A stretch of 28,168 bases of DNA. Origin: a virus. The notes beneath the pieces are model-generated. The model was not told where the DNA came from, searched no databases, and saw only the letters and a program-made list of their open reading frames with translations. A program made the position numbers and the translations under genes. How positions within the stretch are numbered: the stretch's first letter is position 1; each line of letters starts with the position of its first letter. The stretch lies in the IMG/VR virus record IMGVR_UViG_3300027908_000023, positions 70,369-98,536 of that record; one strand, 5' to 3'. Shown here piece by piece: positions 3,773 through 28,168 of this stretch.

Positions 3773-3849
3773 CAATAGCTTCCAAGAAACCCCTCGCCTT
3801 CAGGCATGGGGAGAACCAAAACTTTTCCACATTTTCCTACCACCAACCC

Positions 3850-3878
3850 TTGACTCAGGAGCCAATCACTCCTATGAT
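3850..3878 (+). promoter_or_regulatory. sigma70 promoter giving a probably leaderless tnpB mRNA
   Basis: TTGACT (3850-3855), 17 nt, TATGAT (3873-3878); ATG 6 nt later at 3885 with no RBS. Confidence 0.7.
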
Positions 3879-3884
3879 ACCTAC

Positions 3885-4985
3885 ATGAAGCTCACGATTC
3901 AACTGCAACTGCTGCCAACCAGCGAACAAGCCACCATCCTGCTTGACACGATGGCGCGTGTGAATCAAGCTGCCACGTTCGCTGCGCAGCAAGGCTTTGA
4001 CAACGGCGTTTTCAGCCAACCGAGCATTCACAAGCTCGCCTACCGTGCCATCCGCGATCAGTTCGGCCTGTCCGCTCAACTGGCCGTGCGTGCCATCGGC
4101 AAGGCGGTGGAGACATTCCAGCGCGACAAGACGATATGCCCCATGTTCCGCCCCGATGGAGCCATTACCTACGATGAACGCAACATGGGCTTCAAGGGCG
4201 TGGACAAGGTTAGTCTGAGTACCTTGGCAGGCCGGCAGATCATCGGCATGGTCTATGGTGAGTATCAGCGTGAGAGATTCGACCGCATCAAGGGACAGTG
4301 CGATCTCGTCTACCGTGACAATAAGTTCTTCCTCATAGCCAACGTTGATCTTCCGGAAGCGCCGCCCCTGGAGATCAAGGCGTTTCTGGGCGTTGACCTT
4401 GGCCTCATCAATCTTGCCACGACGAGCCAGGGCGAGATGTTCAGCGGCGAGACGGTGAACCGCACACGCCGGCGTTGTGCGACGGCCAGAAAACAATACC
4501 AGCGGAAAGGAACGCGGAATGCCAAGCGACGATTGAAGAAGATCGGCAAACGCCAGTCGAGGTTTCAGACCTGGCGCAACCACAATATCGCCAAGCAGAT
4601 TGTCCAGACGGCAAAGGCACTTGGATTCGGCATCGCGATGGAGGATCTGACCGACATTCGCGAGCGGATCGAAGACACGGTTGGCCGTAGAACAAGACGG
4701 AGATTCGGCAACTGGAGTTTCCGGCAGTTGAGAGACTTCGTGTCCTACAAGGCACGCCTCGCCGGTGTGCCGGTCTGTCTGGTTGACCCGCGCAATACCT
4801 CTCGCATTTGTAGCAAGTGCGGCTATTGCGACAAGGCCAACCGCAAGACTCAGGATCGGTTTCTCTGCCTGCACTGCGGATTCTCCCTGAATGCCGACCT
4901 GAACGCCGCTGTCAACATCTCGTTGATAGCTTGGGATGCCTTTGTAAACCATCCCGAAAAGCAGCAGTCTTGCGTCTTCTCTTAA
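3885..4985 (+). CDS. tnpB: RNA-guided endonuclease TnpB
   Basis: MKLTIQLQLLPT start; RuvC-I GVDLG, RuvC-II IAMEDL, Zn finger CSKC/CLHC, RuvC-III NADLNAAVNI; DED triad intact. Confidence 0.95.
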   Translation: MKLTIQLQLLPTSEQATILLDTMARVNQAATFAAQQGFDNGVFSQPSIHKLAYRAIRDQFGLSAQLAVRAIGKAVETFQRDKTICPMFRPDGAITYDERNMGFKGVDKVSLSTLAGRQIIGMVYGEYQRERFDRIKGQCDLVYRDNKFFLIANVDLPEAPPLEIKAFLGVDLGLINLATTSQGEMFSGETVNRTRRRCATARKQYQRKGTRNAKRRLKKIGKRQSRFQTWRNHNIAKQIVQTAKALGFGIAMEDLTDIRERIEDTVGRRTRRRFGNWSFRQLRDFVSYKARLAGVPVCLVDPRNTSRICSKCGYCDKANRKTQDRFLCLHCGFSLNADLNAAVNISLIAWDAFVNHPEKQQSCVFS

Positions 4986-5093
4986 CGGAGACTAGCTGCA
5001 AAGCCTCATGCCTTTAGGCGCGGGGTAAGTTTACCGTGCATCCTCCAAAGACTTGAGGATAGCACACTGCCAACAGTGAACGCAATATCACTG

Positions 5094-8595: not shown

Positions 8596-9086
8596 TTCCT
8601 CACGAGAATATCGATTAACCTCTCAGCATCGCTGCCTGTCATACCGTTCATGCCGAACGTCTGCACCAGTTGAATTCCGAACTGACCGTATCCCAGGAAG
8701 TCCGGCTCTTCATCTGAGAGATCATCGACCGCCGCATAATGTTTGACTTCAAGATGCTTGTCGAGCCAACGCCGCGCCAGAGCGCCACGATGATATGGCG
8801 GCCGCGACTCTGGATCAAAGTCTAAAATGCCGATGATCGGACTGTAATCGTCGCGGAGCCAAAGCAAGCCATGAGTGCGCAACAAGTATTGGAAGCCACC
8901 CAGCCTCATGCTTTCGCCCAAGACCATGTAACGCCATGCCGAACTGATAACGAGACGGCAATCGGTCTGGCGAATCACATGGTTCAGATGGTCAATGCAA
9001 TGAGCGTCGATGCCGCAGATGCCGGAATCGGCATGCTTGGCATGGTTGTTCAACACACCGTCCACGTCGAGAAATAGCGCTTTCAT
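8592..9086 (-). CDS. HAD-family phosphatase (Swiss-Army-Knife RNA-repair-type HAD domain)
   Basis: LFLDVDGVLN (DxD), VISSAWR, YAAVDD, and the G(L/M)T C-terminal motif. Confidence 0.85.
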   Translation of the reverse strand: MKALFLDVDGVLNNHAKHADSGICGIDAHCIDHLNHVIRQTDCRLVISSAWRYMVLGESMRLGGFQYLLRTHGLLWLRDDYSPIIGILDFDPESRPPYHRGALARRWLDKHLEVKHYAAVDDLSDEEPDFLGYGQFGIQLVQTFGMNGMTGSDAERLIDILVRK

Positions 9087-9298
9087 TCGACCGTCTCCCA
9101 CTCTTCAAGAAACTCCGTGTCGTGCTGAAGTCTCAGCGTGTGCGGCATCTCCTCATAGCTGCCATGCTCGACAAATATATGATGTCCACCGATGTTCCGA
9201 CACTCGATCCAGTGGTGTGGATTCATTTTCGACCACACGACCGGCCGAACGCGATGACCACCACCCTTACATAGATTCAACGCTTCGATGATGTCCAT
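9083..9298 (-). CDS. hypothetical phage protein
   Basis: MDIIEAL...EEWETVE end pattern common in small phage proteins; coupled. Confidence 0.55.
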   Translation of the reverse strand: MDIIEALNLCKGGGHRVRPVVWSKMNPHHWIECRNIGGHHIFVEHGSYEEMPHTLRLQHDTEFLEEWETVE

Positions 9299-9540
9299 TA
9301 TTTCTCCTCCGGCCCATACAGCATCGTCATTCCATCCATCGGATACTCCGGATCAACGCCGCGCCGCGCTAGGCCGAGCTTCTTGATCGCTGCATCGCAG
9401 CCAAGTTGACAGGGCGAGAAATCGTAGTTGCCAGTCATCTCCCAGACCTTATTGGCAAACTTTTGTTTGTCGATTGGCCCATCCTTGGCCAATAAGGTAA
9501 AAATGGTGTTGAACAGTTGGGCGCTAGTTCGGTCAGCCAT
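9298..9540 (-). CDS. hypothetical protein
   Basis: AGGAG RBS; TAATG coupling. Confidence 0.6.
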   Translation of the reverse strand: MADRTSAQLFNTIFTLLAKDGPIDKQKFANKVWEMTGNYDFSPCQLGCDAAIKKLGLARRGVDPEYPMDGMTMLYGPEEK

Positions 9541-9550
9541 TCGTTTTCTC

Positions 9551-9922
9551 CTATAGCAGAGATTCTCCGCGCTTCAGTTTCTCGATCCATTCAAGAACCT
9601 GACGCAATGCATCCCTGCCTTCGTTAGCATCACGCCACTTCGTAAAGTCAAGTTCGCCGTAGATGCAGCGCTCCAACTCAAGTAGAAGGCTGATGCCGAG
9701 TCGCTTTTCCTCGATGGCCTGGCGAGCGTAGACAGCGGCATCCAGAATCTCCTGGTACAGGTCAATCAGGGCATCCCGGCCGTTGTTGACCTGAAGTGGC
9801 GTGCCATACTTGTCAATGCCGTGCTGGCGTCGATCCTCCATGTCCTTCAAGACCAGCAACCAAACATCACCGGTCATCTTCTTCGGGTCCGGCTGGTCGC
9901 TGATCAGACTGTTCGTCGCCAT
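9551..9922 (-). CDS. conserved all-alpha phage protein (possibly MazG-like)
   Basis: RRQHGIDKYGTPL...DLYQEILDAAVY pattern; the activity is an inference. Confidence 0.55.
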   Translation of the reverse strand: MATNSLISDQPDPKKMTGDVWLLVLKDMEDRRQHGIDKYGTPLQVNNGRDALIDLYQEILDAAVYARQAIEEKRLGISLLLELERCIYGELDFTKWRDANEGRDALRQVLEWIEKLKRGESLL

Positions 9923-10217
9923 TGCCTTGCTCCTTCCTCTTGGGTTCATCGGTTACGAGAATCAACCTGGCGATCTCCACATCCCGCTGCGTCACCAGAT
10001 CCTTGATCATCGGCGCGAACCGCTCACAGATTTCGCGAACCGCCGGCCGCTCGTCACACTTTTTACAGACATCGGGAGCCACCATGCAGCCAGGGATGAT
10101 ACCGCGACAGGTCAAGCAGTATTCCTTGCCGCAAGCAATGCACACCAGCAAGTAGCGCTCCAGGCGATGACAGACATCGCAGTAGGTTTCCTCGTGGGCG
10201 GGGATGGTCTTTCTCAT
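9867..10217 (-). CDS. Zn-finger hypothetical protein
   Basis: CDVC, CIAC, CLTC and CKKC motifs. Confidence 0.6.
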   Translation of the reverse strand: MRKTIPAHEETYCDVCHRLERYLLVCIACGKEYCLTCRGIIPGCMVAPDVCKKCDERPAVREICERFAPMIKDLVTQRDVEIARLILVTDEPKRKEQGNGDEQSDQRPAGPEEDDR

Positions 10218-10483
10218 GGCAGCTTCTCCGCAACCTTACAGCCTTCCCGTGTCAACGAGTACATCTTTCGCGCCCAATCGACCTTACAAACAACGTGCCC
10301 GTCCACCCAGCCCTTGGCTTCCAACGACCGCAACACCGCCGAGCCAGCCAGGCAGAGATTGCTCGACTGGCCACCACTCTTGTTCAACAGGCCGGCGCTC
10401 AACAAGTGCTGGCCGGCGTCGTTGGTGGAGACGGCCGGGCGCTTGAGGAGCAAGCGGATGATCGATTCTTGGCGTGGTGTCAT
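10214..10483 (-). CDS. winged-helix-like protein
   Basis: MTPRQESII...LRSLEAKGWV...YSLTREG (MarR/PadR-like wing). Confidence 0.55.
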   Translation of the reverse strand: MTPRQESIIRLLLKRPAVSTNDAGQHLLSAGLLNKSGGQSSNLCLAGSAVLRSLEAKGWVDGHVVCKVDWARKMYSLTREGCKVAEKLP

Positions 10484-13649: not shown

Positions 13650-15032
13650 TCAACGTGAACGATGCCGAACTGCCGGAGCGCTATACGCTCCATGCGCTCC
13701 GCTTGCAAGTGCAACTCGCGTGAGGTTGCCTCCAGACGAGCCACCTGATCCATCATGGGGTAGTGTCCTAACAATGCGTTGCCGGGTAGTGTCCTTACAT
13801 CGCGTTGGCGACTTCGGACTTCCTGTTTCATCGGATCGGCTTACCTCCCCGGACGTATGCCCGGTTCGACAGAGGCCGATTCCTCCACAGTTCGCGCCGA
13901 CCACTCTCAGCGCGCGAGCGTGAATCACCATACCGGAGGCTCTATCTCTCTCACAGCAGAGCCCACAGGGACAATTATGGAGACGCTCATTGAGACTCTT
14001 GTACTTTCTTGCACCACAAGCCGGGCAGTCCTGGCTTGTGTATCTCGCGTTCACTCCGATCGCATGACGGCCAGCGTTTGCAGCTTTGCTCGTCAGCAGC
14101 CGGAGGAACGATCCCCAGGCGGCATCGTGGATGGACTTGGCGAGAGGCGATCTGCACATGCCGCGAATGTTGAGATTCTCGAAGCCGATCAGATTGTACT
14201 GATTCACCAAACGACGCGCGGTCTGATGGGCGAAATCTCTACGCTGAGCCTGAATGCGCTCGTAATGCCTGGCAAGACGCCTGACCGCCTTGCGGCGGTT
14301 CCGAGAGCCTTTCTGCTTGCGGGATACCTGTTTGTGCAGGTGTTTGAGCTTCCGCTCAGACTTGCGATAGAACCTGGGATTCTCAATCTTGTCGCCGTTT
14401 GCCAGGACGGCGAAGGTCGTCAGGCCAACATCAAGGCCAGTGCTGGTCTGGAGAGACTCAACAGGGATTTTCTCCGGGATCTGGATGCCAGTATCGATGA
14501 CGACCTGAGCATACCAGCCGGAGGCACGATGGATAACGCGAAGCAACAACTGCTTGGCAATCGGTCCGGTGTCGAACATGCCGCGAGCCGTGACTTCGCC
14601 AAGAACCGGAATACGGATCGCGCCATCATGGATGTAGTTGCCGTGATGAAGATACTCCATCGACCGATAGCGATGATGGGCGCGGAACCTCGGATAACCC
14701 GGTTTCTCGCCAGCCTTGAGGCGACGGAAGAAGGCATCCATGCCTCGATCCAGACGGCGCAGCGAGTCGCGCAGGAAGACGACCGGAACCGGAGTCAGCA
14801 TCGGAATATGGGCACGCCAATCCTTCAGAATTTCGCACTGCCGAACAAAGCCGATGGATTCCTTCCTGCGCTTGTAGGCTTTTGTCCTCATCTCCAGCAT
14901 CTGATTGTAGGTCCAGCAACACGCGCCAAGCCAGGATTCAAGAGTATCTTCCTCTGTCTTGGACAGATAGAGCTTAAATTCCAGTGTCTTCTGGATCGTC
15001 CGGAGACCAGAGGCTTTCTTCTTTCTGTACAT
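13650..15032 (-). CDS. tnpB: RNA-guided endonuclease TnpB; the ORF reads out through the TIR
   Basis: KTLEFKLY, GYPRFR, RuvC-I GLDVGL, RuvC-II IGFENLNIRGM, DAAWGSF, Zn finger CPAC/CPC, RuvC-III ERDRAS; no in-frame stop inside the element. Confidence 0.93.
   Translation of the reverse strand: MYRKKKASGLRTIQKTLEFKLYLSKTEEDTLESWLGACCWTYNQMLEMRTKAYKRRKESIGFVRQCEILKDWRAHIPMLTPVPVVFLRDSLRRLDRGMDAFFRRLKAGEKPGYPRFRAHHRYRSMEYLHHGNYIHDGAIRIPVLGEVTARGMFDTGPIAKQLLLRVIHRASGWYAQVVIDTGIQIPEKIPVESLQTSTGLDVGLTTFAVLANGDKIENPRFYRKSERKLKHLHKQVSRKQKGSRNRRKAVRRLARHYERIQAQRRDFAHQTARRLVNQYNLIGFENLNIRGMCRSPLAKSIHDAAWGSFLRLLTSKAANAGRHAIGVNARYTSQDCPACGARKYKSLNERLHNCPCGLCCERDRASGMVIHARALRVVGANCGGIGLCRTGHTSGEVSRSDETGSPKSPTRCKDTTRQRIVRTLPHDGSGGSSGGNLTRVALASGAHGAYSAPAVRHRSR
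13785..13900 (-). ncRNA. putative omegaRNA scaffold overlapping the tnpB 3' end
   Basis: CTGTGGAG...GATGAAACAGGAAG motifs of the kind I recognise at tnpB 3' ends, then hairpin GTCC-GAA-GTCGC-CAAC-GCGAT-GTAA-GGAC; boundaries approximate. Confidence 0.55.
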
Positions 15033-15039
15033 GGACGGA

Positions 15040-15068
15040 AGTTTACCAGATGGGCGGAATGGTGTCAA
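15040..15068 (-). promoter_or_regulatory. sigma70 promoter inside the element, probably leaderless tnpB mRNA
   Basis: TTGACA (15068-15063), 17 nt ending TGG, TAAACT (15045-15040); 7 nt to ATG at 15032. Confidence 0.7.
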
Positions 15069-15182
15069 GGGCGGTTGGGAGAAAAAATCAACGCGATGTT
15101 AGGACACTACCCATCATGGCATCGAACAGGTTCAAAACACCGAGAGGCGTCAAGAGGATTTTCCCTTCCGTCTTCATTGCCA

Positions 15183-17443: not shown

Positions 17444-17547
17444 TTTCATTTAGTATTTTGCAGTTTGCATTCAGTATTTTGCATTCATAGAGCCACACGC
17501 GAAATACTGCAAAATAGAAAATGCAAAGTGCAAAAGGCAGAATTCAG
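17444..17547. repeat. 104-bp heptamer-built palindromic element, copy 1 (degenerate right arm)
   Basis: Six 7-mers TTTCATT TAGTATT TTGCAGT TTGCATT CAGTATT TTGCATT, a 20-nt loop, then six imperfect complementary 7-mers. Confidence 0.85.
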
Positions 17548-20077: not shown

Positions 20078-20251
20078 CTAGAGGTATTTATCTAACATGC
20101 TAATAGCAATCCACATGACGAGAACAAGACCTCCCAGCGCCAGGACGGCGCAGAAGCCGAACCACCAGGCGAACCGCCGTGTGCGCTGATCGATGCGACG
20201 TTGCATCTCATCGAAGGAATCGAATTCTTCGTTGTGCTTGAAGAGAGTCAT
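20078..20251 (-). CDS. small membrane protein (57 aa)
   Basis: Hand translation MTLFKHNEEF...FAWWFGFCAVLALGGLVLVMWIAISMLDKYL*; ATGA overlap. Confidence 0.6.
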   Translation of the reverse strand: MTLFKHNEEFDSFDEMQRRIDQRTRRFAWWFGFCAVLALGGLVLVMWIAISMLDKYL

Positions 20252-20660
20252 GATTGCTCTTTCTCCTCATGATCAGCGAGCCATTGATCCGCCACCACCA
20301 GCGCCTCATAGGGGCATTTGAACTCGCCGCGATGCTCTGTATGCATGTCGAATTCCAGCGGCATGTCGTAACCATTGATGGTTCGTACCCGCCAATACAG
20401 GCCAATCTTATGCCTGGACATCGGCACCACGTAGAGGCCGCGACGTATCATCACATCATGGGCGTTCCGTGCCAGGGCGATGAAGTGGGCGTTGGTGCCG
20501 ATGGGTTCGGGACCTTCGGGTTTGCCGCAATCGTTGAGGCCATAATGGCTCGACATGCAGGTGGTAGAAACCGGCACGCCGTTGGCATCGCGGACCAAGC
20601 CCCAATCGTCATGCTCTAACGGACGAACACGCCACGGTGCCGGCGAGAGTTTGTTGAGAT
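20248..20660 (-). CDS. phage protein (Ead/'TPGPW'-like) whose start lies in or before the CRISPR repeat
   Basis: LNKLSPAPWRV...NAHFIALARNA pattern; the only in-frame starts upstream of this motif are inside the mini-array. Confidence 0.65.
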
Positions 20661-21193
20661 GTTGCAATCTTCCTCCCATTGCACTGGCTGTTGTTACCAC
20701 GGATCAGGTACAGGTCTATCCGCTGACCATCGGGGGTTGCAATCTTCCTGCCATTGCACTGGCTGTTGTTACTATCCAGAATCGGCAAATCGCGCCAACC
20801 TTCCAACTCTTCGCCTGGATGAATACGGATACTCAATCCTCTGGCCACCAAATCAAAGCGGCGATCAGATTCCTCTCGGCAAGGCCGTCGTGGTCCTGGA
20901 TAAACTTCGGCGCTGCGAACTGTTTCCCAGAAGCCATGAACCTTGGCGAATTTGTCCTTGCCGTCCAGCAGAATACGCTCTACTTCGATCTGTCGTAACT
21001 CCTTCAACAACGACAAGAGTTCTTCAGCATCATAGTCCGCTTCAAACCAGGATGCCAGCAGGCGAACCGCCGGGAAACCATAACCATCAACAACCTGGAG
21101 GTTAAACCCGTGTGGCTTCGGATCGTGAAAGATCAGCAGATTGAGCGCCAGCAACTCTTGCTGAATGGCGCTGACGAGTTCCGCTTCGCTCAT
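20609..21193 (-). CDS. hypothetical protein reading through the mini-array
   Basis: Start MSEAEL after GAGGAG; the repeats translate as NNSQCNGRKIAT twice. Confidence 0.55.
   Translation of the reverse strand: MSEAELVSAIQQELLALNLLIFHDPKPHGFNLQVVDGYGFPAVRLLASWFEADYDAEELLSLLKELRQIEVERILLDGKDKFAKVHGFWETVRSAEVYPGPRRPCREESDRRFDLVARGLSIRIHPGEELEGWRDLPILDSNNSQCNGRKIATPDGQRIDLYLIRGNNSQCNGRKIATSQQTLAGTVACSSVRA
20661..20772 (-). CRISPR. mini-array: two type-B repeats and one 38-bp spacer
   Basis: Repeats 20661-20697 and 20736-20772, GTTGCAATCTTCCT(C/G)CCATTGCACTGGCTGTTGTTAC; the second is identical to 27845-27881. Confidence 0.9.
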
Positions 21194-21203
21194 GGCTGGC
21201 TCC

Positions 21204-22568
21204 TCAGAATCCGCGCACCTGATTTTCAGCGAAGAGCGTCCGGCCACGGTCGTAATCCAGGGTGATGTCCCCCACGGGGCCGTTGCGGTTCTTCTCGACC
21301 TGGACAACCAGTTCACGCGGGTTGTTGTCGGCATCAGGCTGATGGAGCATCAACACCACGTCGGCATCCTGCTCCAATTCTCCAGATCCTCTCAGATCAG
21401 AAAGTTTCGGCCGGCTGTCGGCGCGGGATTCGACCTCGCGATTGAGCTGCGCCAGCGCTAGTATTGGGATATTTAGTTCCCGCGCCAAGAACTTCAACCT
21501 CCTTGAGATCGCGGCCAATTGCTCGTGCCTCGGATCGCGGCGATTGTCTGGCTCAATCAGTTGGAGATAATCAATGACTACCAGGCCAAGCGGGATTTCC
21601 TCCTTGCGCGTCTTGGCGCGGAGAGCGAGCCTTCGCGCGTTGCTGGCGATCCTCAAGACATTCTGACCTGGGCTGTCGTCGATCCAGAACGGCAGCGCCG
21701 ACAGCGCATCACCAGCCTGCCCGATCAGACTACTCTCTTCAGGAGTTATCCGGCAATGCTTGAAGGCGCGCTGTTCGACACCGGAACCGGCACAGAGCAA
21801 CCGTTCGGCTAAATCCAGACGCGACTGCTCCAGACTGGCAAAGAACACGCCAAGAACCTCGCCGGCACGCCGTGCCAGCGCGAGCGATAGCGCGGTTTTG
21901 CCCACAGACGGACGGGCGGCAAGCAGAATCAATTCCCCGGGCTGCCAGCCGGCCGTCATGGCATCAAGGCTGTCGAACCCCGACGAGATGCCGGATACCT
22001 CGCTGTGACTCTTGGCTCTCTGATCGAGCCGGTCATAGACCTCGTGGATGATTTCCGACATCTTGTACAGGTTACCAGAAACGCCCATCGTCGCGATGGC
22101 GAAGATGCGTTTCTCAGCACTTTGCAAAATCTCCTCTGCCGAACCGGCCGCACGCTCGGCTTCTTCGGATATGATCTGCGCCGCGATGGAGAGTTCGCGA
22201 AGGATCGAGGCGTCGCGAACTCGTTCCGCATGGTAGACCGCGTTGGCACCGGTCGGAACCTCGTCCCACAAGCGAGCCAAGAAGGTATGCCCCTCCATCG
22301 ACTTTTCGCCCGGCCGATCCGCCAAGCCACCCAACTGCGACAACTCGTTGCGGCGATGGAGCAGGTCCGCCACGCTCACCAGATCGATCGGTTTGGCCTT
22401 GTCGTAGAGTTCCAGTTGTGCCTGATAGACCAGTCCGTGCGCATGGTCGCGAAAGTTCTTCGCGGCAAGCAGTGGCGCTATTTCCGCCAAGACGGTTGGC
22501 CAGCGGAAGATACCACCGATGACGGCGCGCTCACTGTCGTTCAAAACTCGCAACTTCTCTTCGCTCAT
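21204..22568 (-). CDS. dnaB: replicative DNA helicase DnaB
   Basis: AARPSVGKT (Walker A), VIDYLQL, LAQLNR, LSDLRGSGELEQDAD, KNRNGP. Confidence 0.97.
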   Translation of the reverse strand: MSEEKLRVLNDSERAVIGGIFRWPTVLAEIAPLLAAKNFRDHAHGLVYQAQLELYDKAKPIDLVSVADLLHRRNELSQLGGLADRPGEKSMEGHTFLARLWDEVPTGANAVYHAERVRDASILRELSIAAQIISEEAERAAGSAEEILQSAEKRIFAIATMGVSGNLYKMSEIIHEVYDRLDQRAKSHSEVSGISSGFDSLDAMTAGWQPGELILLAARPSVGKTALSLALARRAGEVLGVFFASLEQSRLDLAERLLCAGSGVEQRAFKHCRITPEESSLIGQAGDALSALPFWIDDSPGQNVLRIASNARRLALRAKTRKEEIPLGLVVIDYLQLIEPDNRRDPRHEQLAAISRRLKFLARELNIPILALAQLNREVESRADSRPKLSDLRGSGELEQDADVVLMLHQPDADNNPRELVVQVEKNRNGPVGDITLDYDRGRTLFAENQVRGF

Positions 22569-23632
22569 TAGACGGCCCCATTGCCTTGAGTTGACGCATC
22601 ACTCGTCTGAACTGCTGATCGCTCACCTGAAGCGATTCCTGACGGGTTTCCGACCGCGTGGCGCGCGGCGTTGATCTCTGCCATCGACGGCCCATCGCGC
22701 AGATGCGGTTTCGAGAACAGCGGGTCGGGCGTTTGCGGCTTCTTTTCTGGTTCTCGGTTGATTGCCGATTGGATCTGGTTTTCCGGCAGGTACATTTGCC
22801 AGTTGCCGGTTTCCTCGAAGAACGCCTTGGCCGATTGTCGGGCTTTTTTGAGGATTTCGTTCTTGCGGCAATGGGCCGCGTAGGCGTCGGCACAGGCTTT
22901 CAATTGCTCAGGCGTTTTGCCGGCATCGAGCAAGGTCAAAATCTCCGGGACGGCGAACGACTGGTGGATCGTCTGAACGGTTCGCTGGTAGTGCTCGAAG
23001 ACCTTCTTGGCACCTGGGAACAAATCCGGCCGGTCAGCGGCCAGGACGAGCCGGCGCGGAAGATTTTGCGCAGATTGCACGGCCGGCGCAGCAAATCCAT
23101 TCTTCGCCTCTTCGCTGATCTTCTCCGAAGGAACAACCAAACTATCCCCCTCTGGGGGTTTGGGGGTTGTATTTAATACTGTTCTGTCCTGTACTGTAGG
23201 CGCAACATTCGTGACAGGCTCGCGCAACGATGGCGCAACATCGGTTGCGCTGGCGCGCAACACTTCTGCTTGACTTTTCTGGTTAGCTCGACTTTTCTGC
23301 ATACGTTTCGCGGCCGACAGGCGCTTTTTAGCGGAATTCCCCATCCAACGCTCAAAGTTTACGAATTCGATACAGCCGTTGGTTTGCCTCATCCAACCCA
23401 CCTGACACATGGCTGGCACGAAGCGGTTCATCGGTGCCGAACAGACGTGTGACAACTGCGCAACAGAAACGTAGCGCAAGAAGCCATCCGCCGACTGGCC
23501 ATCCGCCCAGCTCCACAGTTGCAAGAGCGCGAACACGGTTTCAGCGATCGACAGACCGCACGCTTCCGCGAGGTAGAGCGTCTCCTCTTTGTGGGGTAGA
23601 TCCTTGCAGTAAGGAATCCAGTCACCGGCCAT
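22568..23632 (-). CDS. phage replication initiator (lambda O-like position)
   Basis: MAGDWI...LLQLWSWAD N-terminal domain, basic KKR..AKRMQKSR linker, directly upstream of dnaB, contains iterons. Confidence 0.75.
   Translation of the reverse strand: MAGDWIPYCKDLPHKEETLYLAEACGLSIAETVFALLQLWSWADGQSADGFLRYVSVAQLSHVCSAPMNRFVPAMCQVGWMRQTNGCIEFVNFERWMGNSAKKRLSAAKRMQKSRANQKSQAEVLRASATDVAPSLREPVTNVAPTVQDRTVLNTTPKPPEGDSLVVPSEKISEEAKNGFAAPAVQSAQNLPRRLVLAADRPDLFPGAKKVFEHYQRTVQTIHQSFAVPEILTLLDAGKTPEQLKACADAYAAHCRKNEILKKARQSAKAFFEETGNWQMYLPENQIQSAINREPEKKPQTPDPLFSKPHLRDGPSMAEINAARHAVGNPSGIASGERSAVQTSDASTQGNGAV
23160..23261. repeat. putative replication origin: 11-bp-phased GCGCAAC iterons
   Basis: GCGCAAC at 23200, 23222, 23233 and 23255, inverted at 23244; adjacent CTGTN pentamers and AT-rich TGTATTTAATACT. 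Confidence 0.65.
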
Positions 23633-23984
23633 GAGCGCTACCCTCCTGCCAGGCACGATCAGGAGCGGTATAGCGGTTGTGAAGGAAGCGGTCAAGAGAT
23701 CGCGTCCAGCCGGGAATCCGCACGCCGGAATCGTCCTCGACCAGCCAGCCGCGCTCTACCAATGCCACGAAGAAGGCCATGTCTGTGTTGTCGATGACCT
23801 GATGAAGCTGATGGATCTTGGCCAGGCCGAGCATCCCATCCATCCCGTACTGTTCGACGTAGAGCCATAGATCAAGAAGCGAAAGCAGCACTTCCGAGAC
23901 GTTCCGGTTCAACTCCTGAGCCAACAAGAAGACCTCGGAGCGCTTCGCCAGGCTTCGATGATACGGAACCGCCTTTGCTGCCAT
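23622..23984 (-). CDS. stand-alone paralog of the initiator N-terminal domain
   Basis: VPYHRSL..RSEV..LA...VSEVLLSLLDLW...DG...ALVERGWL aligns by eye with IPYCKDL..KEET..LA...IAETVFALLQLW...DG...AMCQVGWM. Confidence 0.65.
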   Translation of the reverse strand: MAAKAVPYHRSLAKRSEVFLLAQELNRNVSEVLLSLLDLWLYVEQYGMDGMLGLAKIHQLHQVIDNTDMAFFVALVERGWLVEDDSGVRIPGWTRSLDRFLHNRYTAPDRAWQEGSAHGR

Positions 23985-24023
23985 CGCGTCTCCTCCAGGT
24001 GCCAACTTCGCCAGCCTTCTGCC

Positions 24024-24344
24024 TCATCCGCACAGCGCCGCCCCCGGACAGGCCATCACTTCTTCCTCGAACAACTCCACCCTCTCCCTGGCAATCGTGC
24101 CCGTACTGGACTCGATGACCGAACAGCCGTAGCAAAACGCGACCCCACCGGCAAATCCACTGGCGATCTGTTCCACCACCACGTAGCGCGTTCCTGAAGC
24201 GCCCAGGTGATTCTTCGCCCGGTGAACCAGCACGGCACCGATCGCGTGCTTGAAACCGAGCCAATCAAGCGAGCGCTGACGTTCCGCGCTGGCAGTTGAT
24301 TCCTTGACGCGGTTGCCGTTGCTATTAGTTTTTACCACGGGCAT
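24024..24344 (-). CDS. hypothetical protein
   Basis: AAGGAG RBS before MPVVKT. Confidence 0.55.
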   Translation of the reverse strand: MPVVKTNSNGNRVKESTASAERQRSLDWLGFKHAIGAVLVHRAKNHLGASGTRYVVVEQIASGFAGGVAFCYGCSVIESSTGTIARERVELFEEEVMACPGAALCG

Positions 24345-24504
24345 GGTTTCGTCTCCTTGTGTTTGGGCCGGCTTCATATAGTTCGACCTCTGGAGATAGT
24401 CAAGGCTATTATTTTAGCGGAATCTGGATGCGGCTCAAGAGATGGCGGCGCGATTATCAGGAATGGAGAAAATGCGTGAAAGTGTAATCGCTAAAACAGT
24501 GGAA

Positions 24505-24608
24505 TTTCATTTAGTATTTTGCAGTTTGCATTTTAGATTTTGCATTGTTCAGCACATGGCTTGATGAATGCAAAATCTAAAATGCAAACTGCAAAATACT
24601 GAATGAAA
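24505..24608. repeat. 104-bp heptamer-built palindromic element, copy 2 (42-bp arms, 41/42 complementary)
   Basis: Arms 24505-24546 and 24567-24608, 20-nt loop; first 28 nt identical to copy 1. Confidence 0.92.
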
Positions 24609-24690
24609 GAAATCGCCTCCGCGCCGTCGATCGACAACGAGCCGATCCGCCGTTCGCAACGTGCGTCGCAAGGGGAGCGGAGATTGACAT

Positions 24691-24727
24691 GTTGCAACCT
24701 TCATCCCGTTACACCGGGCATTGTTAC
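24691..24727 (-). CRISPR. solitary CRISPR repeat (type C)
   Basis: GTTGCAACCTTCATCCCGTTACACCGGGCATTGTTAC, identical to 27995-28031 and 28070-28106. Confidence 0.92.
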
Positions 24728-24900
24728 GAATTTCATGTCAACTCGACGACGCAGAGGCAATGTGAAAATCCTTCGCGGTGTCCTGGAACCACAAGTTCCT
24801 TCCCCCAACCCACCTACTTGCCAAGGAAAAACCCACATGGTGCCATCGGAACGGAACGCACCACCATATGAGCCGGACACCGCGAAGAAACCAATCCGGC
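24728..24900 (-). promoter_or_regulatory. CRISPR leader-like region
   Basis: No convincing ORF; perfect 13-bp inverted repeat CTTCGCGGTGTCC (24771-24783) / GGACACCGCGAAG (24875-24887) near the repeat. Confidence 0.5.
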
Positions 24901-24972
24901 AGGGATCGCAACAGCGACCCAGAACGCATAAAAGCAAGCCAGGATGCACTGCCGTGATTGATGAAGTGTATG

Positions 24973-25206
24973 TTATTCCACACCATCAAAACACTTGCCA
25001 GAGTGAGCCTTTTTCTTGATCCAGTACAGCGCACTGATCGACCATCTCTCGATGATGGCACGGTTAACTTTGCCCCAATCCACCTTGTCGCGCTCGCTGG
25101 AGCGTAGCGCCAGGCAGTAGGTCTTGGCGATGTCGAGTCGCACGGAAGACGGCTCAGCGATCTCGTCAAGGAGTGTTCTTTCGCACGTCATCAATTCCCA
25201 GGGCAT
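24973..25206 (-). CDS. hypothetical phage protein
   Basis: GGAG RBS; VDWGKVNRAIIERWSISALYWIK. Confidence 0.65.
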   Translation of the reverse strand: MPWELMTCERTLLDEIAEPSSVRLDIAKTYCLALRSSERDKVDWGKVNRAIIERWSISALYWIKKKAHSGKCFDGVE

Positions 25207-25208
25207 GG

Positions 25209-26372
25209 CTACTGTTCTCCCTGCATGGCCGCGCGTTCCGCGTCGTCATCGCCCGATACCGCCGGCATGGCTTCCAGTTCCTTGAGGAGTTTCTGCCCGT
25301 CGGTTTCCGTCATGGCGTTGACGAGTGCCGGGATCTTCAGTCGCCCTGCGAGGTTCTCCAGGTCATCGGGGAAGATTTGTTTCTCGGTAATCAGCGTGTT
25401 GATCTTCTCGCGTGTCTCGGCCGTGATGGCAACCGTCACGGTTCCGCTAACTGCCGCGCTCTGTTGTGCCTTGAGATGATCCAGCACCTGAGCGCTCCGC
25501 GATCCAACTGCTGGCAAGGCCGGTTGTCCAGCATTGCCAGCACCGGCCGCGCCAGCGCCGCTCGTCAACCCGCGTTCGTCCACATCGCCGCCCGGCAATG
25601 CGGCCAGGGTGAGTTTCGATCCGGTTGCCTTGCGATAGGCTGCCTGGTAGGCATCGCCAATCGCCTTGCCGATCAGCTGAGACGACTTGGCAGCACCGTG
25701 ACACTCGACCGTGAAGGCTTGCCCCGGTTTGTCGTCGGTGCCGATCAGTTGATCGTTCTTTCCGTCCATGAGCCAGGAGAGTTTCACTCTCACGCTCCAC
25801 TGGCCGTCGCGATTCACGGGCTGGCCAGGCGCGATGGTGATGTCCGAGATGCCGGGAAGTTCCTCGAACTTTCTCCGCCAGCCGTTCTGGGTCACGAAGC
25901 ACTGGCCGGCGATGATGTTGAACTCGTTGCCGATGAGATAGAGTCCCTGGATCAGCGCTGTCACGACGCAGTTGCGGACTTCTGGAACCGTGTAGGAATT
26001 CGGGTTGCTCTTGCTCGGACGATCGCAGCGGAAACCGTTCTGATCATTCATGAGCGGCATGACGTGCCTGGTCATCAGGTCCTCGGAGAGTTGCTCTCTG
26101 AGTGCCCGGATGCCCTCTGCCATGAGCAGCGCGCGTTCCGTATGACCACTTGCCCGGTCGATGGCCTGCGCATAACTGATCGCCGTGGTATCGATCTTGC
26201 GAGCGTAGGAGAGCAGTTTGTCGTCGAGCCTGGCGACGGGGAACGTCGGCGCTGAGCCATGTTGCGATTCCACGACCGCCGCGCCGGTCGTGGTTGCACT
26301 TGCTGGAGAGGTTGCTGTCTCGCCGAGCGTTCGTTGCTCCTGGCCTCTTCGGGATGTATCTATTTTAGCCAT
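25209..26372 (-). CDS. probable single-strand annealing protein (divergent RecT/Redbeta-like)
   Basis: Directly downstream of YqaJ; GLYLIGNEFNIIAGQCFVTQNGWRRKF resembles the RecT/Bet core; low-complexity linker and small C-terminal domain. Confidence 0.5.
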   Translation of the reverse strand: MAKIDTSRRGQEQRTLGETATSPASATTTGAAVVESQHGSAPTFPVARLDDKLLSYARKIDTTAISYAQAIDRASGHTERALLMAEGIRALREQLSEDLMTRHVMPLMNDQNGFRCDRPSKSNPNSYTVPEVRNCVVTALIQGLYLIGNEFNIIAGQCFVTQNGWRRKFEELPGISDITIAPGQPVNRDGQWSVRVKLSWLMDGKNDQLIGTDDKPGQAFTVECHGAAKSSQLIGKAIGDAYQAAYRKATGSKLTLAALPGGDVDERGLTSGAGAAGAGNAGQPALPAVGSRSAQVLDHLKAQQSAAVSGTVTVAITAETREKINTLITEKQIFPDDLENLAGRLKIPALVNAMTETDGQKLLKELEAMPAVSGDDDAERAAMQGEQ

Positions 26373-26374
26373 AG

Positions 26375-27256
26375 CTATTGCTCCTCAGAAAGATTCCTTG
26401 CCGGCACATGAAGCCTCATCTGCCCGGCCTTGGTTACCTTGCGCGTGATGACTCTGCCGTCACTGAGTTTACCAGCGCCGGCACAACCCAGCGCCTCGAT
26501 GATTCGACACTTGTAAGATTCCCTGGTGCGTTCCATCTCGCTGAGTTGTTCGCCGAGTCCCACATAGGCATCGGCAACTTCTTCCATCTCTGTATCGAGT
26601 TCTATACTCTTTGTTTCGTCTGGATGAAAGAGCAAGTTAAGTATTTTCGCCGTGTTGGGATGTTGATAATCGAACGCTGGCGGCTCCTGCCGGCAAACCC
26701 TATCCCATAACTCTGAGGCAGCGGTCAAGAGCAGTTGCTGTATCTCTTGATTGCGCTCCACGGTATAGATTCTAAAATCGCTGCCGCCAACCAACACCGC
26801 GACATCGACGCTCTCTATCTCCAACTCCACAGCCGAAAGCATCTGCCATTGTGTCTGGCAAAAGTAGTATTCAGGAACCTGATCGGTTCCGGGCGTACCC
26901 CAACCTTTGCGCTCGTCAGTGCGCTTAATCTCGACAAACTTTCTCTCGTTCCTGATTCCACGGTCGGGTGTGGAGATGACCCAACGGTGTTCAGGGTGTC
27001 TTAGAATTGGCGGATCAAACTGGAACAACTCGTGGCCGGTTTCCAGAGCGTAGACCTGTGCGATGACATCTTCCAGGAGCCGGCCCCACTCCATTGAGGG
27101 ATTGTCGTAGTCCAGCGACTTTCCCAGCTTGTCGGCATATACGTCAAGTGGTCCACCCCAACTTGGAGGAGCCAGGCCGACCACCTTGGCGATCTCGGAA
27201 GCGCCGATGCCGCTACGGCGTTCGGCTAGCCAGATCGTGCGCTGTTCAGGTGTCAT
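26375..27256 (-). CDS. YqaJ/lambda-exonuclease-family recombination nuclease
   Basis: WLAERRSGIGASE, WGRLLE, STPDR, VEIKR, YFCQTQWQM. Confidence 0.95.
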   Translation of the reverse strand: MTPEQRTIWLAERRSGIGASEIAKVVGLAPPSWGGPLDVYADKLGKSLDYDNPSMEWGRLLEDVIAQVYALETGHELFQFDPPILRHPEHRWVISTPDRGIRNERKFVEIKRTDERKGWGTPGTDQVPEYYFCQTQWQMLSAVELEIESVDVAVLVGGSDFRIYTVERNQEIQQLLLTAASELWDRVCRQEPPAFDYQHPNTAKILNLLFHPDETKSIELDTEMEEVADAYVGLGEQLSEMERTRESYKCRIIEALGCAGAGKLSDGRVITRKVTKAGQMRLHVPARNLSEEQ

Positions 27257-27615
27257 CTGGTTCCTACTCCATGCAGTTCCTTGAGAAGATCATCTATCAC
27301 CAGTGCCAGTTCTGCTGCCGCATCCTCTAATCTTGTTGTGTCCCACCATGCAGCGAAAATGCGAAGTTCTCTTGAAGTATTATGCCAGAGCCAGCAGCGA
27401 TACTCCAGACGAAACGCCTCGGGTTTTCCCTTGCCGTGATAGATCAGGAATGCGAAGGGATCAAGTGCGCCGATCGTTCCTGAGTTGTTTTCGATCAACC
27501 ATTTTCCCTGGCAGAGCGCCATCTTGTGCGTGCCATGAAGCAGATCAAGCAGAGATCGCAGGGTCGGCACTGAGACATCCGCTGCCAGCTTCGCGAAGGC
27601 TTTGGGGCCGGTCAT
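27253..27615 (-). CDS. hypothetical protein
   Basis: GAGG RBS; ATGA coupling to the YqaJ gene. Confidence 0.55.
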   Translation of the reverse strand: MTGPKAFAKLAADVSVPTLRSLLDLLHGTHKMALCQGKWLIENNSGTIGALDPFAFLIYHGKGKPEAFRLEYRCWLWHNTSRELRIFAAWWDTTRLEDAAAELALVIDDLLKELHGVGTR

Positions 27616-27698
27616 GCGGCAGTCCTCTCGTTCTGTTTCAGTTCGCGCCGGGCGAAGAGGCCACCCAGCGTATCGGCGTGGCGTTTTATCATAGGTTT

Positions 27699-28168
27699 GG
27701 CGCAACCTTCAGGCCGTTGCACCGGCCATTGTTACGCATCGGGGGCCATTTTGCCATACTTCTCAATCCTGCAGTTGCAACCTTCAAGCCGTTGCACCGG
27801 CCATTGTTACTGCAACGGCTTGAAGGTTGCAACAACTGAGCAGAGTTGCAATCTTCCTGCCATTGCACTGGCTGTTGTTACGAGGCGTCGGTTCGACTCT
27901 GATACCTCACCCGACCGCTGCGTTGCAACCTTCAAGCCGTTGCACCGGCCATTGTTGCCGTGAATCGCCCGCTGACCGGATTGACCAGATGACAGTTGCA
28001 ACCTTCATCCCGTTACACCGGGCATTGTTACGCCGCTGATAACGCTTGGACGACCGTGGCGCAGATCAGGTTGCAACCTTCATCCCGTTACACCGGGCAT
28101 TGTTACTTTGTACCGTTTTGCCCGTCCGGTGCGCGTCTCAATGTTGCAACCTTCATCCCGTTACACCG
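27699..28168 (-). CRISPR. CRISPR array with heterogeneous 37-bp repeats (at least 7 repeats, 6 spacers), cut off by the window end
   Basis: Repeats start at 27699, 27774, 27845, 27922, 27995, 28070 and 28143 (partial); spacers are 38, 34, 40, 36, 38 and 36 bp. The degenerate repeat at 27699 suggests the trailer end, so transcription on minus (repeat ends ...GAAGGTTGCAAC). Confidence 0.95.

Follow-up and report, generated by a model that had tools for sequence, protein, structure and literature searches.

The window (the whole stretch of 28,168 nt of soil phage DNA that was analysed) harbored the trailer end of a main CRISPR array (27699..28168, minus strand) and two satellite loci built from the same repeats. 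One was a mini-array of two repeats and a spacer (20661-20772, minus strand), in which an exact type-B repeat (20736..20772, minus strand) was followed by a 38-nt spacer (20698..20735, minus strand) and a terminal repeat, B' (20661..20697, minus strand), with one mismatch to B. The other was a solitary, exact type-C repeat (24691..24727, minus strand), located in intergenic space, with the YqaJ block on one side and the initiator-dnaB block on the other. Neighboring genes, all on the minus strand, encoded a YqaJ/RecE-like exonuclease (26375..27256), a putative annealase of 387 aa (25209..26372), a replication initiator (22568..23634) and a DnaB helicase (21204..22568). In the main array, type B occurred once only (27845..27881, minus strand), and exact C copies were found at 27995 and 28070. 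A preliminary description of this DNA had reported the type-B mini-array, the base-for-base recurrence of C and a common orientation of the repeats; all three held, with the mini-array consisting of one exact and one near-exact B, and the orientation, identical for all in-window copies, being settled by the location of the cas gene together with the degenerate trailer repeat.

No cas gene was present in the window itself, whose end was a contig break within the array. A second assembly of the same phage (100% identity over 11.8 kb) revealed the full array and a cas12m gene (P0003, 724 aa; L010:6455-8629) outside the window, about 460 nt past its end, so that the network described earlier as cas-less had its effector next to it; the label cas-less should be withheld from any array that runs into a contig end. 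The first array repeat started 10 nt past the cas12m stop codon, and the array encompassed 13 repeats and 12 spacers, with about 450 nt beyond the window end. From the gene onwards, the repeats were nine of type C, then A*, B, A and the degenerate trailer A* (27699-27735). Nine of the 12 spacers were distinct, a three-spacer block being duplicated, and read depth over the duplicated unit in the raw-read graph (37.9 vs about 16) matched the duplication. A circular contig with the array wrapping round was ruled out, the contig not being circular.

P0003 was assigned to Cas12m by sequence (best PDB match Cas12m 23vw, E 5e-36), by profile (PADLOC Cas12u1, E 9e-47, residues 40-640 over profile positions 24-528 of 533) and by predicted fold (model pLDDT 63; four best matches 8hhl, 8pm4, 8hio and 8hhm, E 4e-23 to 3e-18). 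It displayed a C4 zinc finger and the WED His-Arg pair at 278-279. As read from its sequence, the RuvC triad was N352/G543/D631, two of the three acids being lost, and the nuclease site is predicted to be degenerate and non-cutting. Cas1 had no match in the 98.5-kb record (G000), and no cas Pfam family was found among the genes called within 10 kb upstream of cas12m. The phage carries a type V-M system that stands alone, cas12m being directly followed by the 13-repeat array. Cas12m works without a tracrRNA, processes pre-crRNA by a cut inside the repeat that does not depend on RuvC, and silences DNA by binding rather than by cleavage. Four tnpB genes were also present, two of them within the window and all at least 12 kb from the array, and one in-window product scored E 6e-43 against Cas12f2; TnpB/Cas12f was rejected as effector since the true effector adjoined the array and the two tnpB genes examined had their own element ends.

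All three repeat types (A, B and C) folded into the Cas12m pseudoknot. Its cells were paired in 94% of cases, six of the nine pairs showed double-sided changes, and none of 500 shuffles matched the paired cells and covariation score, the pseudoknot model being derived from the same sequences, which makes the slid-pair control lenient. The invariant positions G14 and A36 agreed with the G:A pair of PMC10442227. The Rfam search gave no match. Cas6-type cleavage sites, as proposed in the preliminary description, and Class 1 (Cas6-processed) repeats in general were discarded on the basis of this topology and of the lack of a Cas6 match in G000, the latter a weak test, as the family was recovered from no more than 2 of the 14 control genomes.

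Scanning the whole record for further copies yielded an exact B inside a small ORF (G000:7773-7809), and L009 added another in an intergenic position (L009:4764-4800). L009 had been considered as a second phage; this was dropped, L009 being a continuation of the same phage. Only four satellite loci, two inside the window and two outside, were thus counted across the 115 kb examined of the 132.6-kb scaffold. All four were on the sense strand and at least 3 kb away from the array or effector, two lay among small unrelated genes, and three carried type B. The next-best match in the 98.5-kb record, outside the repeats, had 13 mismatches in 37, so the repeats were not chance occurrences, and the satellites were exact or one base off the array repeats and therefore young. 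Scans of genomes and viral contigs with exact and degenerate repeats found no match, and searches retrieved no close relative of the phage; among contigs, no joint that skips a repeat was seen.

The satellite sites differed in their surroundings. In B', the change C23G broke a scaffold stem pair and created GGAGG 4 nt ahead of the in-frame TTG, at 20667, that starts a publicly called 139-aa ORF (20248-20667; L010:16590-17009), and this repeat seems to have been recruited as the ribosome-binding site of the downstream gene. The exact B at 20736 interrupted a coding-like ORF that started at 21196 and was stop-free up to the repeat, and the B at G000:7773 lay 15 nt into its small ORF, a 44-aa frame being continuous only without the repeat. 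The B at L009:4764-4800 was followed by a 37-38-nt sequence resembling a tRNA 3' half. With the C repeat at 24691 removed, its flanks formed a 10-bp perfect inverted repeat with seven pairs across the junction, a configuration reached at 0.3% of random junctions, and these flanks were computed to be able to sequester the seed of C. No satellite displayed a target-site duplication, and the phage promoter motif was absent within 1 kb upstream of every one of them. Folding energy of the satellite flanks was unremarkable, and scans for sigma-70 promoters and terminators stayed at chance level.

Those array spacers and satellite guides that were searched yielded no external protospacer, and no PAM could therefore be inferred; the 38-nt mini-array spacer likewise yielded no target. 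The oldest spacer, S1 (27736..27773, minus strand), matched the phage itself, as L009 belongs to the same phage: its 3' 29 nt were identical to L009:8633-8661, adjacent to a solo, transposon-like inverted repeat, and its PAM-proximal 5' 9 nt did not match there. Spacer S2 (27811..27844, minus strand) combined 11 unique nt with 23 nt exactly reverse-complementary to repeat A. An 11-nt seed match to the phage itself was found for 3 of 14 guides against 0.86 expected (P ~0.04), with no shared PAM, and no weight is placed on this excess. Against the region upstream of cas12m, the satellite guides had 6-7 mismatches in 17, on which account a crlRNA autoregulator was rejected; array spacer T3 alone reached 14/17, a match found post hoc.

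Dispersed repeats were also found in two unrelated Cas12m phages, whose Cas12m was only 25-29% identical to that of this phage. Outside the cas-adjacent array, G001 (153 kb) had 58 copies against 1.2 by chance and G002 (106 kb) had 13 against 0, while all seven smaller Cas12m records (7/7) had none. These satellites were nearly all intergenic, and many were multi-repeat mini-arrays, on either strand and often between convergent genes. The protein-bound scaffold was kept and the unbound first 7 nt were lost: in G002, identity was 0.92 over nt 30-36 vs 0.49 over nt 1-7, and in G001, pairing persisted in 47 of the 55 changed pseudoknot cells. In the structure of Cas12m2, the first seven repeat nucleotides are disordered (PMC10442227). 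To judge from these sequences, the present phage may represent an early stage of a pattern found in unrelated large Cas12m phages. The shuffling of repeats by the YqaJ/annealase pair, suggested in the preliminary description, gained no support: the phage with most satellites had no YqaJ match, and one phage with YqaJ had no satellites. Searches with the 387-aa protein gave no demonstration of annealase identity (fold model pLDDT 40).

The reading we favor, tentatively and at a little less than an even chance, is that the satellites serve as guide cassettes lying apart from the array, which the Cas12m of the phage would process, with cleavage of the carrier mRNA as a by-product. Host Cas1-Cas2 would add spacers in trans, and recombination would recently have moved repeats or repeat-spacer pieces out of the array. 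The satellites would then be transcribed within phage polycistrons, cut and loaded by Cas12m, each giving an extra guide made of the repeat and the next ~17-20 nt, possibly directed against phage competitors, mobile elements or loci of the host, and the mRNA carrying the satellite would be cut in passing. Tolerated or useful copies may persist and be worn down to a minimal scaffold, resembling what is left of older satellites in other phages with Cas12m, B' having perhaps been co-opted for translation instead. The normal size of the 38-nt mini-array spacer and the spacer-sized tRNA half after the L009 copy speak for guide cassettes; against them stand the lack of external protospacers and of a promoter motif within 1 kb, the two satellites in coding-like sequence, which look like damage rather than design, and the loss of two RuvC acids in a protein whose processing activity is only predicted. 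Selection is unreadable from the copies here, which are exact, and the evidence for it comes from phages with a distant Cas12m.

The preliminary description had named a full cas operon just past the window, with the satellites as random relics, as a finding that would refute it; a cas12m gene was indeed there, and the second part, in which a recombination-prone array sheds neutral or mildly harmful repeats that land anywhere and survive briefly with no selected role here, is rather unlikely. It agrees with the youth of the copies, the disruption of coding-like sequence at two of the four loci, the absence of dedicated promoters and targets, the mosaic array (three repeat types, a duplicated block and an anti-repeat spacer) in a genome full of mobile elements, and the view of Shmakov et al. 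(10.1101/2023.03.03.530964) that many single repeats are spurious duplications. However, the sense strand at four of four loci would be a 1-in-16 outcome by coin toss, older satellites of G001 and G002 kept exactly the protein-bound scaffold, and the architecture recurred in unrelated large Cas12m phages. Scattering of one array by mis-joined identical repeats is extremely improbable. Repeats exceed k=31, so unitigs alone cannot pair flanks across identical copies, but unique gene blocks of 3-4 kb had repeats at both ends in raw-read unitigs (~16x depth; two runs, both possibly of the source sample), which argues that the dispersion was not a mis-join; JGI and ENA assemblies agreed at 100% wherever they overlapped.

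The earlier idea that repeats within transcripts are cut to release guides is plausible, a task that would fall to Cas12m, an effector that processes its own repeats by cutting within them (PMC11013384). Its stronger form, an mRNA-processing regulon in which Cas12m in place of Cas6 would chiefly split the early polycistron into blocks by cutting or capping it, or else occlude translation starts, coupling its level to replication genes, is unlikely. The co-directional order of cas12m, array, yqaJ, C, initiator-dnaB and mini-array, with repeats bounding functional blocks, fits such a regulon, as do the overlap of B' with the ribosome-binding site and start of the next gene and the B close to the start of a gene at G000:7773. 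Against it, loci were few and two lay among unrelated genes, the B' scaffold was weakened exactly where the ribosome-binding site was gained, making control of that start by Cas12m less credible, and the satellites of G001 and G002 were often mini-arrays on either strand between convergent genes. Solitary viral repeats are known as inhibitors (PMC11656645; 10.1101/2024.10.29.618823), and the excess of type B at satellites over the main array and the sequestrable seed of C could suit RNA anti-CRISPR decoys (Racr/SRU), Cracr-type guides against a host or co-infecting Cas12m using repeat B or C, or a sink titrating the phage's own Cas12m. This is very unlikely: the phage encodes the cognate effector, no host effector need be invoked, and the degenerate repeat pattern was unmatched in GTDB collection genomes, from which the host may be absent. 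Returning to guide cassettes, it is conceivable, somewhat short of an even chance, that large phages with a non-cutting Cas12m repeatedly spread the crRNA handle into a distributed guide and RNA-processing network that their own Cas12m would read, of which this phage would be the founding step, with insertion sites legible and one repeat mutated into a translation start signal.

Like type V-M systems (MmCas12m2, GoCas12m, MsCas12m; PMC10442227, PMC11013384), the system has a single effector beside an array with no adaptation genes found, a 36-37-nt pseudoknot repeat, a degenerate RuvC and a zinc finger. Unlike them, it is phage-borne, its 724-aa effector bears insertions and a tail, its N/G/D triad is absent from the triads listed in those papers, and three covarying repeat types share one array with copies dispersed genome-wide. 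Viral mini-arrays and SRUs, Racr and Cracr (PMC11656645; 10.1101/2023.03.03.530964; 10.1101/2024.10.29.618823) are alike in having solitary repeats or repeat-spacer-repeat units in a virus; they borrow or inhibit a host effector, usually from their own promoter, whereas this phage itself carries the cognate effector and has the units inside polycistrons. The presence of cas12m excluded the class of cas-less viral mini-arrays or orphan arrays, and no host genome with this phage's repeat was found in the genome scans, though solitary exact repeats were present. The crlRNA/CreR mini-arrays of cas loci also place extra repeat-derived RNAs near a system able to repress transcription, but the satellite guides here lacked a match to the cas12m upstream region and the satellites were distant.

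Phage-encoded Cas12m has been reported only recently, and genome-wide Cas12m repeats were undescribed in the literature searched. MvCas12m of myxophage MV-1 (10.64898/2026.09.14.751636) is likewise a phage cas12m with an adjacent array, without cas1, cas2 or cas4 and with spacer targets not found; it differs in its 610 aa and retained D-E-D triad, and the passages on Cas12m in that paper mention a single array, with no repeats dispersed elsewhere. Should the satellites prove functional, the phage would use a programmable repressor with guides throughout its transcripts, which would blur the line between CRISPR array and mRNA. Their exactness makes this genome well suited for studying the exit of repeats from an array and the reasons for their initial retention, and it supplies a compact Cas12m with an unusual, apparently dead active site that seems to accept three scaffold variants.

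The three repeat loci of the preliminary description were present at their described positions: a mini-array (B'-spacer-B, 20661-20772) whose first repeat differed from B by a single base, a solitary C repeat (24691-24727) and the in-window part of the main array (27699 to the window end, minus strand), which included exact copies of B and C. The reading of these loci as cas-less did not hold, since cas12m was found directly before the array, roughly 460 nt beyond the window. The window forms the terminal stretch of IMG/VR record G000, which is linear, 82% complete and contains genes for terminase and portal. A degenerate repeat pattern led to a metagenome contig (L009) where the same repeats adjoined a long ORF, and a look-up of the window's YqaJ protein led to a 132,578-bp scaffold (L010), which shared 11,794 nt with the record at 100% identity and ran on through the array into the long ORF of L009. 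The stop codon of this gene (L010:6455-8629, 724 aa) was located 10 nt before the array start. As the array started after this gene and its far end was a degenerate trailer repeat (27699), its minus-strand orientation was fixed. The complete array encompassed 13 repeats and 9 distinct spacers, with a duplicated three-spacer block consistent with doubled read depth over one of these spacers. A sigma-70-like promoter match within the cas12m 3' end (L010:8604-8632) would place the transcription start close to the first base of repeat 1; sigma-70 matches as a whole were at chance level.

The 724-aa protein is a Cas12m: Cas12m structures were its best PDB match (E 5e-36) and all of its top four fold matches, and its best PADLOC profile, covered over the whole model, was Cas12u1. 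The residues at its RuvC positions (N352, G543, D631) make DNA cutting unlikely. Characterised Cas12m does not cleave DNA, uses a single crRNA and processes pre-crRNA inside the repeat by a RuvC-independent route (PMC11013384). The repeats had been proposed as Cas6-type cleavage sites; neither Cas1 nor Cas6 was found in the 98.5-kb record, and the repeats instead form a stem-plus-pseudoknot scaffold. This scaffold, described for Cas12m2 (PMC10442227), was displayed with compensatory changes when A, B and C were aligned with seven other phage Cas12m repeats. The locus is almost certainly a phage-encoded type V-M system.

Scanning the whole 98.5-kb record added one exact B (G000:7773); this copy and an anti-repeat spacer aside, nothing else in the record had fewer than 13/37 mismatches to the repeats. 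Within the 115 kb examined, repeat copies outside the main array (satellites) occupied four loci, each in sense-strand orientation. An exact, intergenic B (L009:4764) was followed by a tRNA 3'-half-like sequence of spacer size. The C at 24691, also intergenic, had flanks that together made up a 10-bp inverted repeat spanning the junction (0.3% of random junctions, about 1% allowing for four sites), which suggests a clean insertion. The mini-array split an ORF that was coding-like up to the repeat, and adjoined a second coding-like ORF without its own start. The single change in B' broke a stem pair and gained a GGAGG 4 bases before an in-frame TTG, taken as start by the public gene call; B' therefore appears to have been co-opted as a ribosome-binding site. 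The B at G000:7773 lay 15 nt into a small ORF, the frame of which was continuous only when the repeat was left out. No target-site duplication was found at any of the four satellites, which look like recent insertions or replacements. The suggestion that YqaJ shuffles the repeats was not borne out: in the small set of phages compared, YqaJ was neither necessary nor sufficient. The genome encoded a second candidate recombinase, an Erf-like single-strand annealing protein (G000:61114-61959). AT-rich, heptamer-based long inverted repeats occurred in three copies (17444-17543, 24505-24604, L016:1-31), one of them located downstream of the solitary C at a distance of about 90 nt, and similar sequence was present in further contigs from two public runs.

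The target searches carried out gave no external protospacer. Spacer S1 had a match in the genome of this phage itself that covered its 3' 29 nt and left out the 9 PAM-proximal nt. As Cas12m reads some 17-18 PAM-proximal bases, binding at this site is improbable; S1 is most simply read as directed against a related element, or as an escaped self-target. S2 was mostly anti-repeat. Array spacer T3 matched 14/17 nt at a site some 140 nt upstream of cas12m, which, as a post hoc observation, hints at possible autoregulation. S4 had an 11-nt seed match (13/17) at the yqaJ start codon and RBS (27249-27259), not significant alone.

Ten other viral records encoded Cas12m relatives (25-29% identity), all without Cas1 and nine with a clear array directly 3' of the gene. 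At L022:8650-9300, a Cas12m-like gene was followed by a series of degenerate repeats that did not resemble the pseudoknot type. The largest relatives, phages G001 (153 kb) and G002 (106 kb), each had only a single ORF in common with this phage. They carried further repeat copies, 58 at about ten loci in G001 (two further full arrays included) and 13 at about four loci in G002, nearly all satellites being intergenic by crude gene calls; seven records of 37-69 kb, several of them incomplete, had no satellite copies. Among satellites picked by the central core only, the 3' scaffold was kept and nt 1-7 were lost (0.92 vs 0.49 in G002, 0.81 vs 0.56 in G001), and in G001 47 of 55 changed pseudoknot cells were still paired. 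Nucleotides 1-7 are disordered in the Cas12m2 structure (PMC10442227). Of the evidence obtained for selection of dispersed copies as Cas12m substrates, this conservation is the best, and it comes from other phages (G001 and G002). G001 also harbored two Cas12m-like genes (8796-10439 and 57298-59025), the first of them followed by a second repeat family, and one more array of 18 repeats (105.8-107.2 kb) with a near-identical leader and no effector match alongside. In G002, an array spacer matched the phage's own genome at 31/36 nt (G002:219 and 52338-52364).

For this phage, we tentatively favor satellites as outlying guide cassettes, read by its own Cas12m; no phage promoter motif was found within 1 kb of any of them. 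That they are neutral relics seems somewhat doubtful, and an mRNA-processing regulon is improbable. Decoys are very unlikely, and an artefact is scarcely credible: unitigs from the two public runs (about 16x depth) contained 3-4 kb gene blocks each flanked by repeats at both ends, which, as these runs may be the source sample, confirms the assembly and not a wider occurrence. What gives the finding particular value is the young age of the copies in this phage. V-M systems are already known on plasmids and prophages. Phage Cas12m (10.64898/2026.09.14.751636) is likewise known, as are viral single repeats (PMC11656645); in the papers searched, no case was found where these are combined into genome-wide handles that serve the phage's own effector.

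The record also contained four tnpB genes in total. An element with tnpB as sole cargo (13751-15119) was bounded by terminal inverted repeats (13759 and 15097-15111), with CATCATGG as its duplicated 8-bp target, and a solo copy of its inverted repeat adjoined the S1 self-match (L009:8633-8690). An IS200/605-type tnpB (3780-5035, ATG at 3885) had hairpin ends and was inserted against the phage gene direction.
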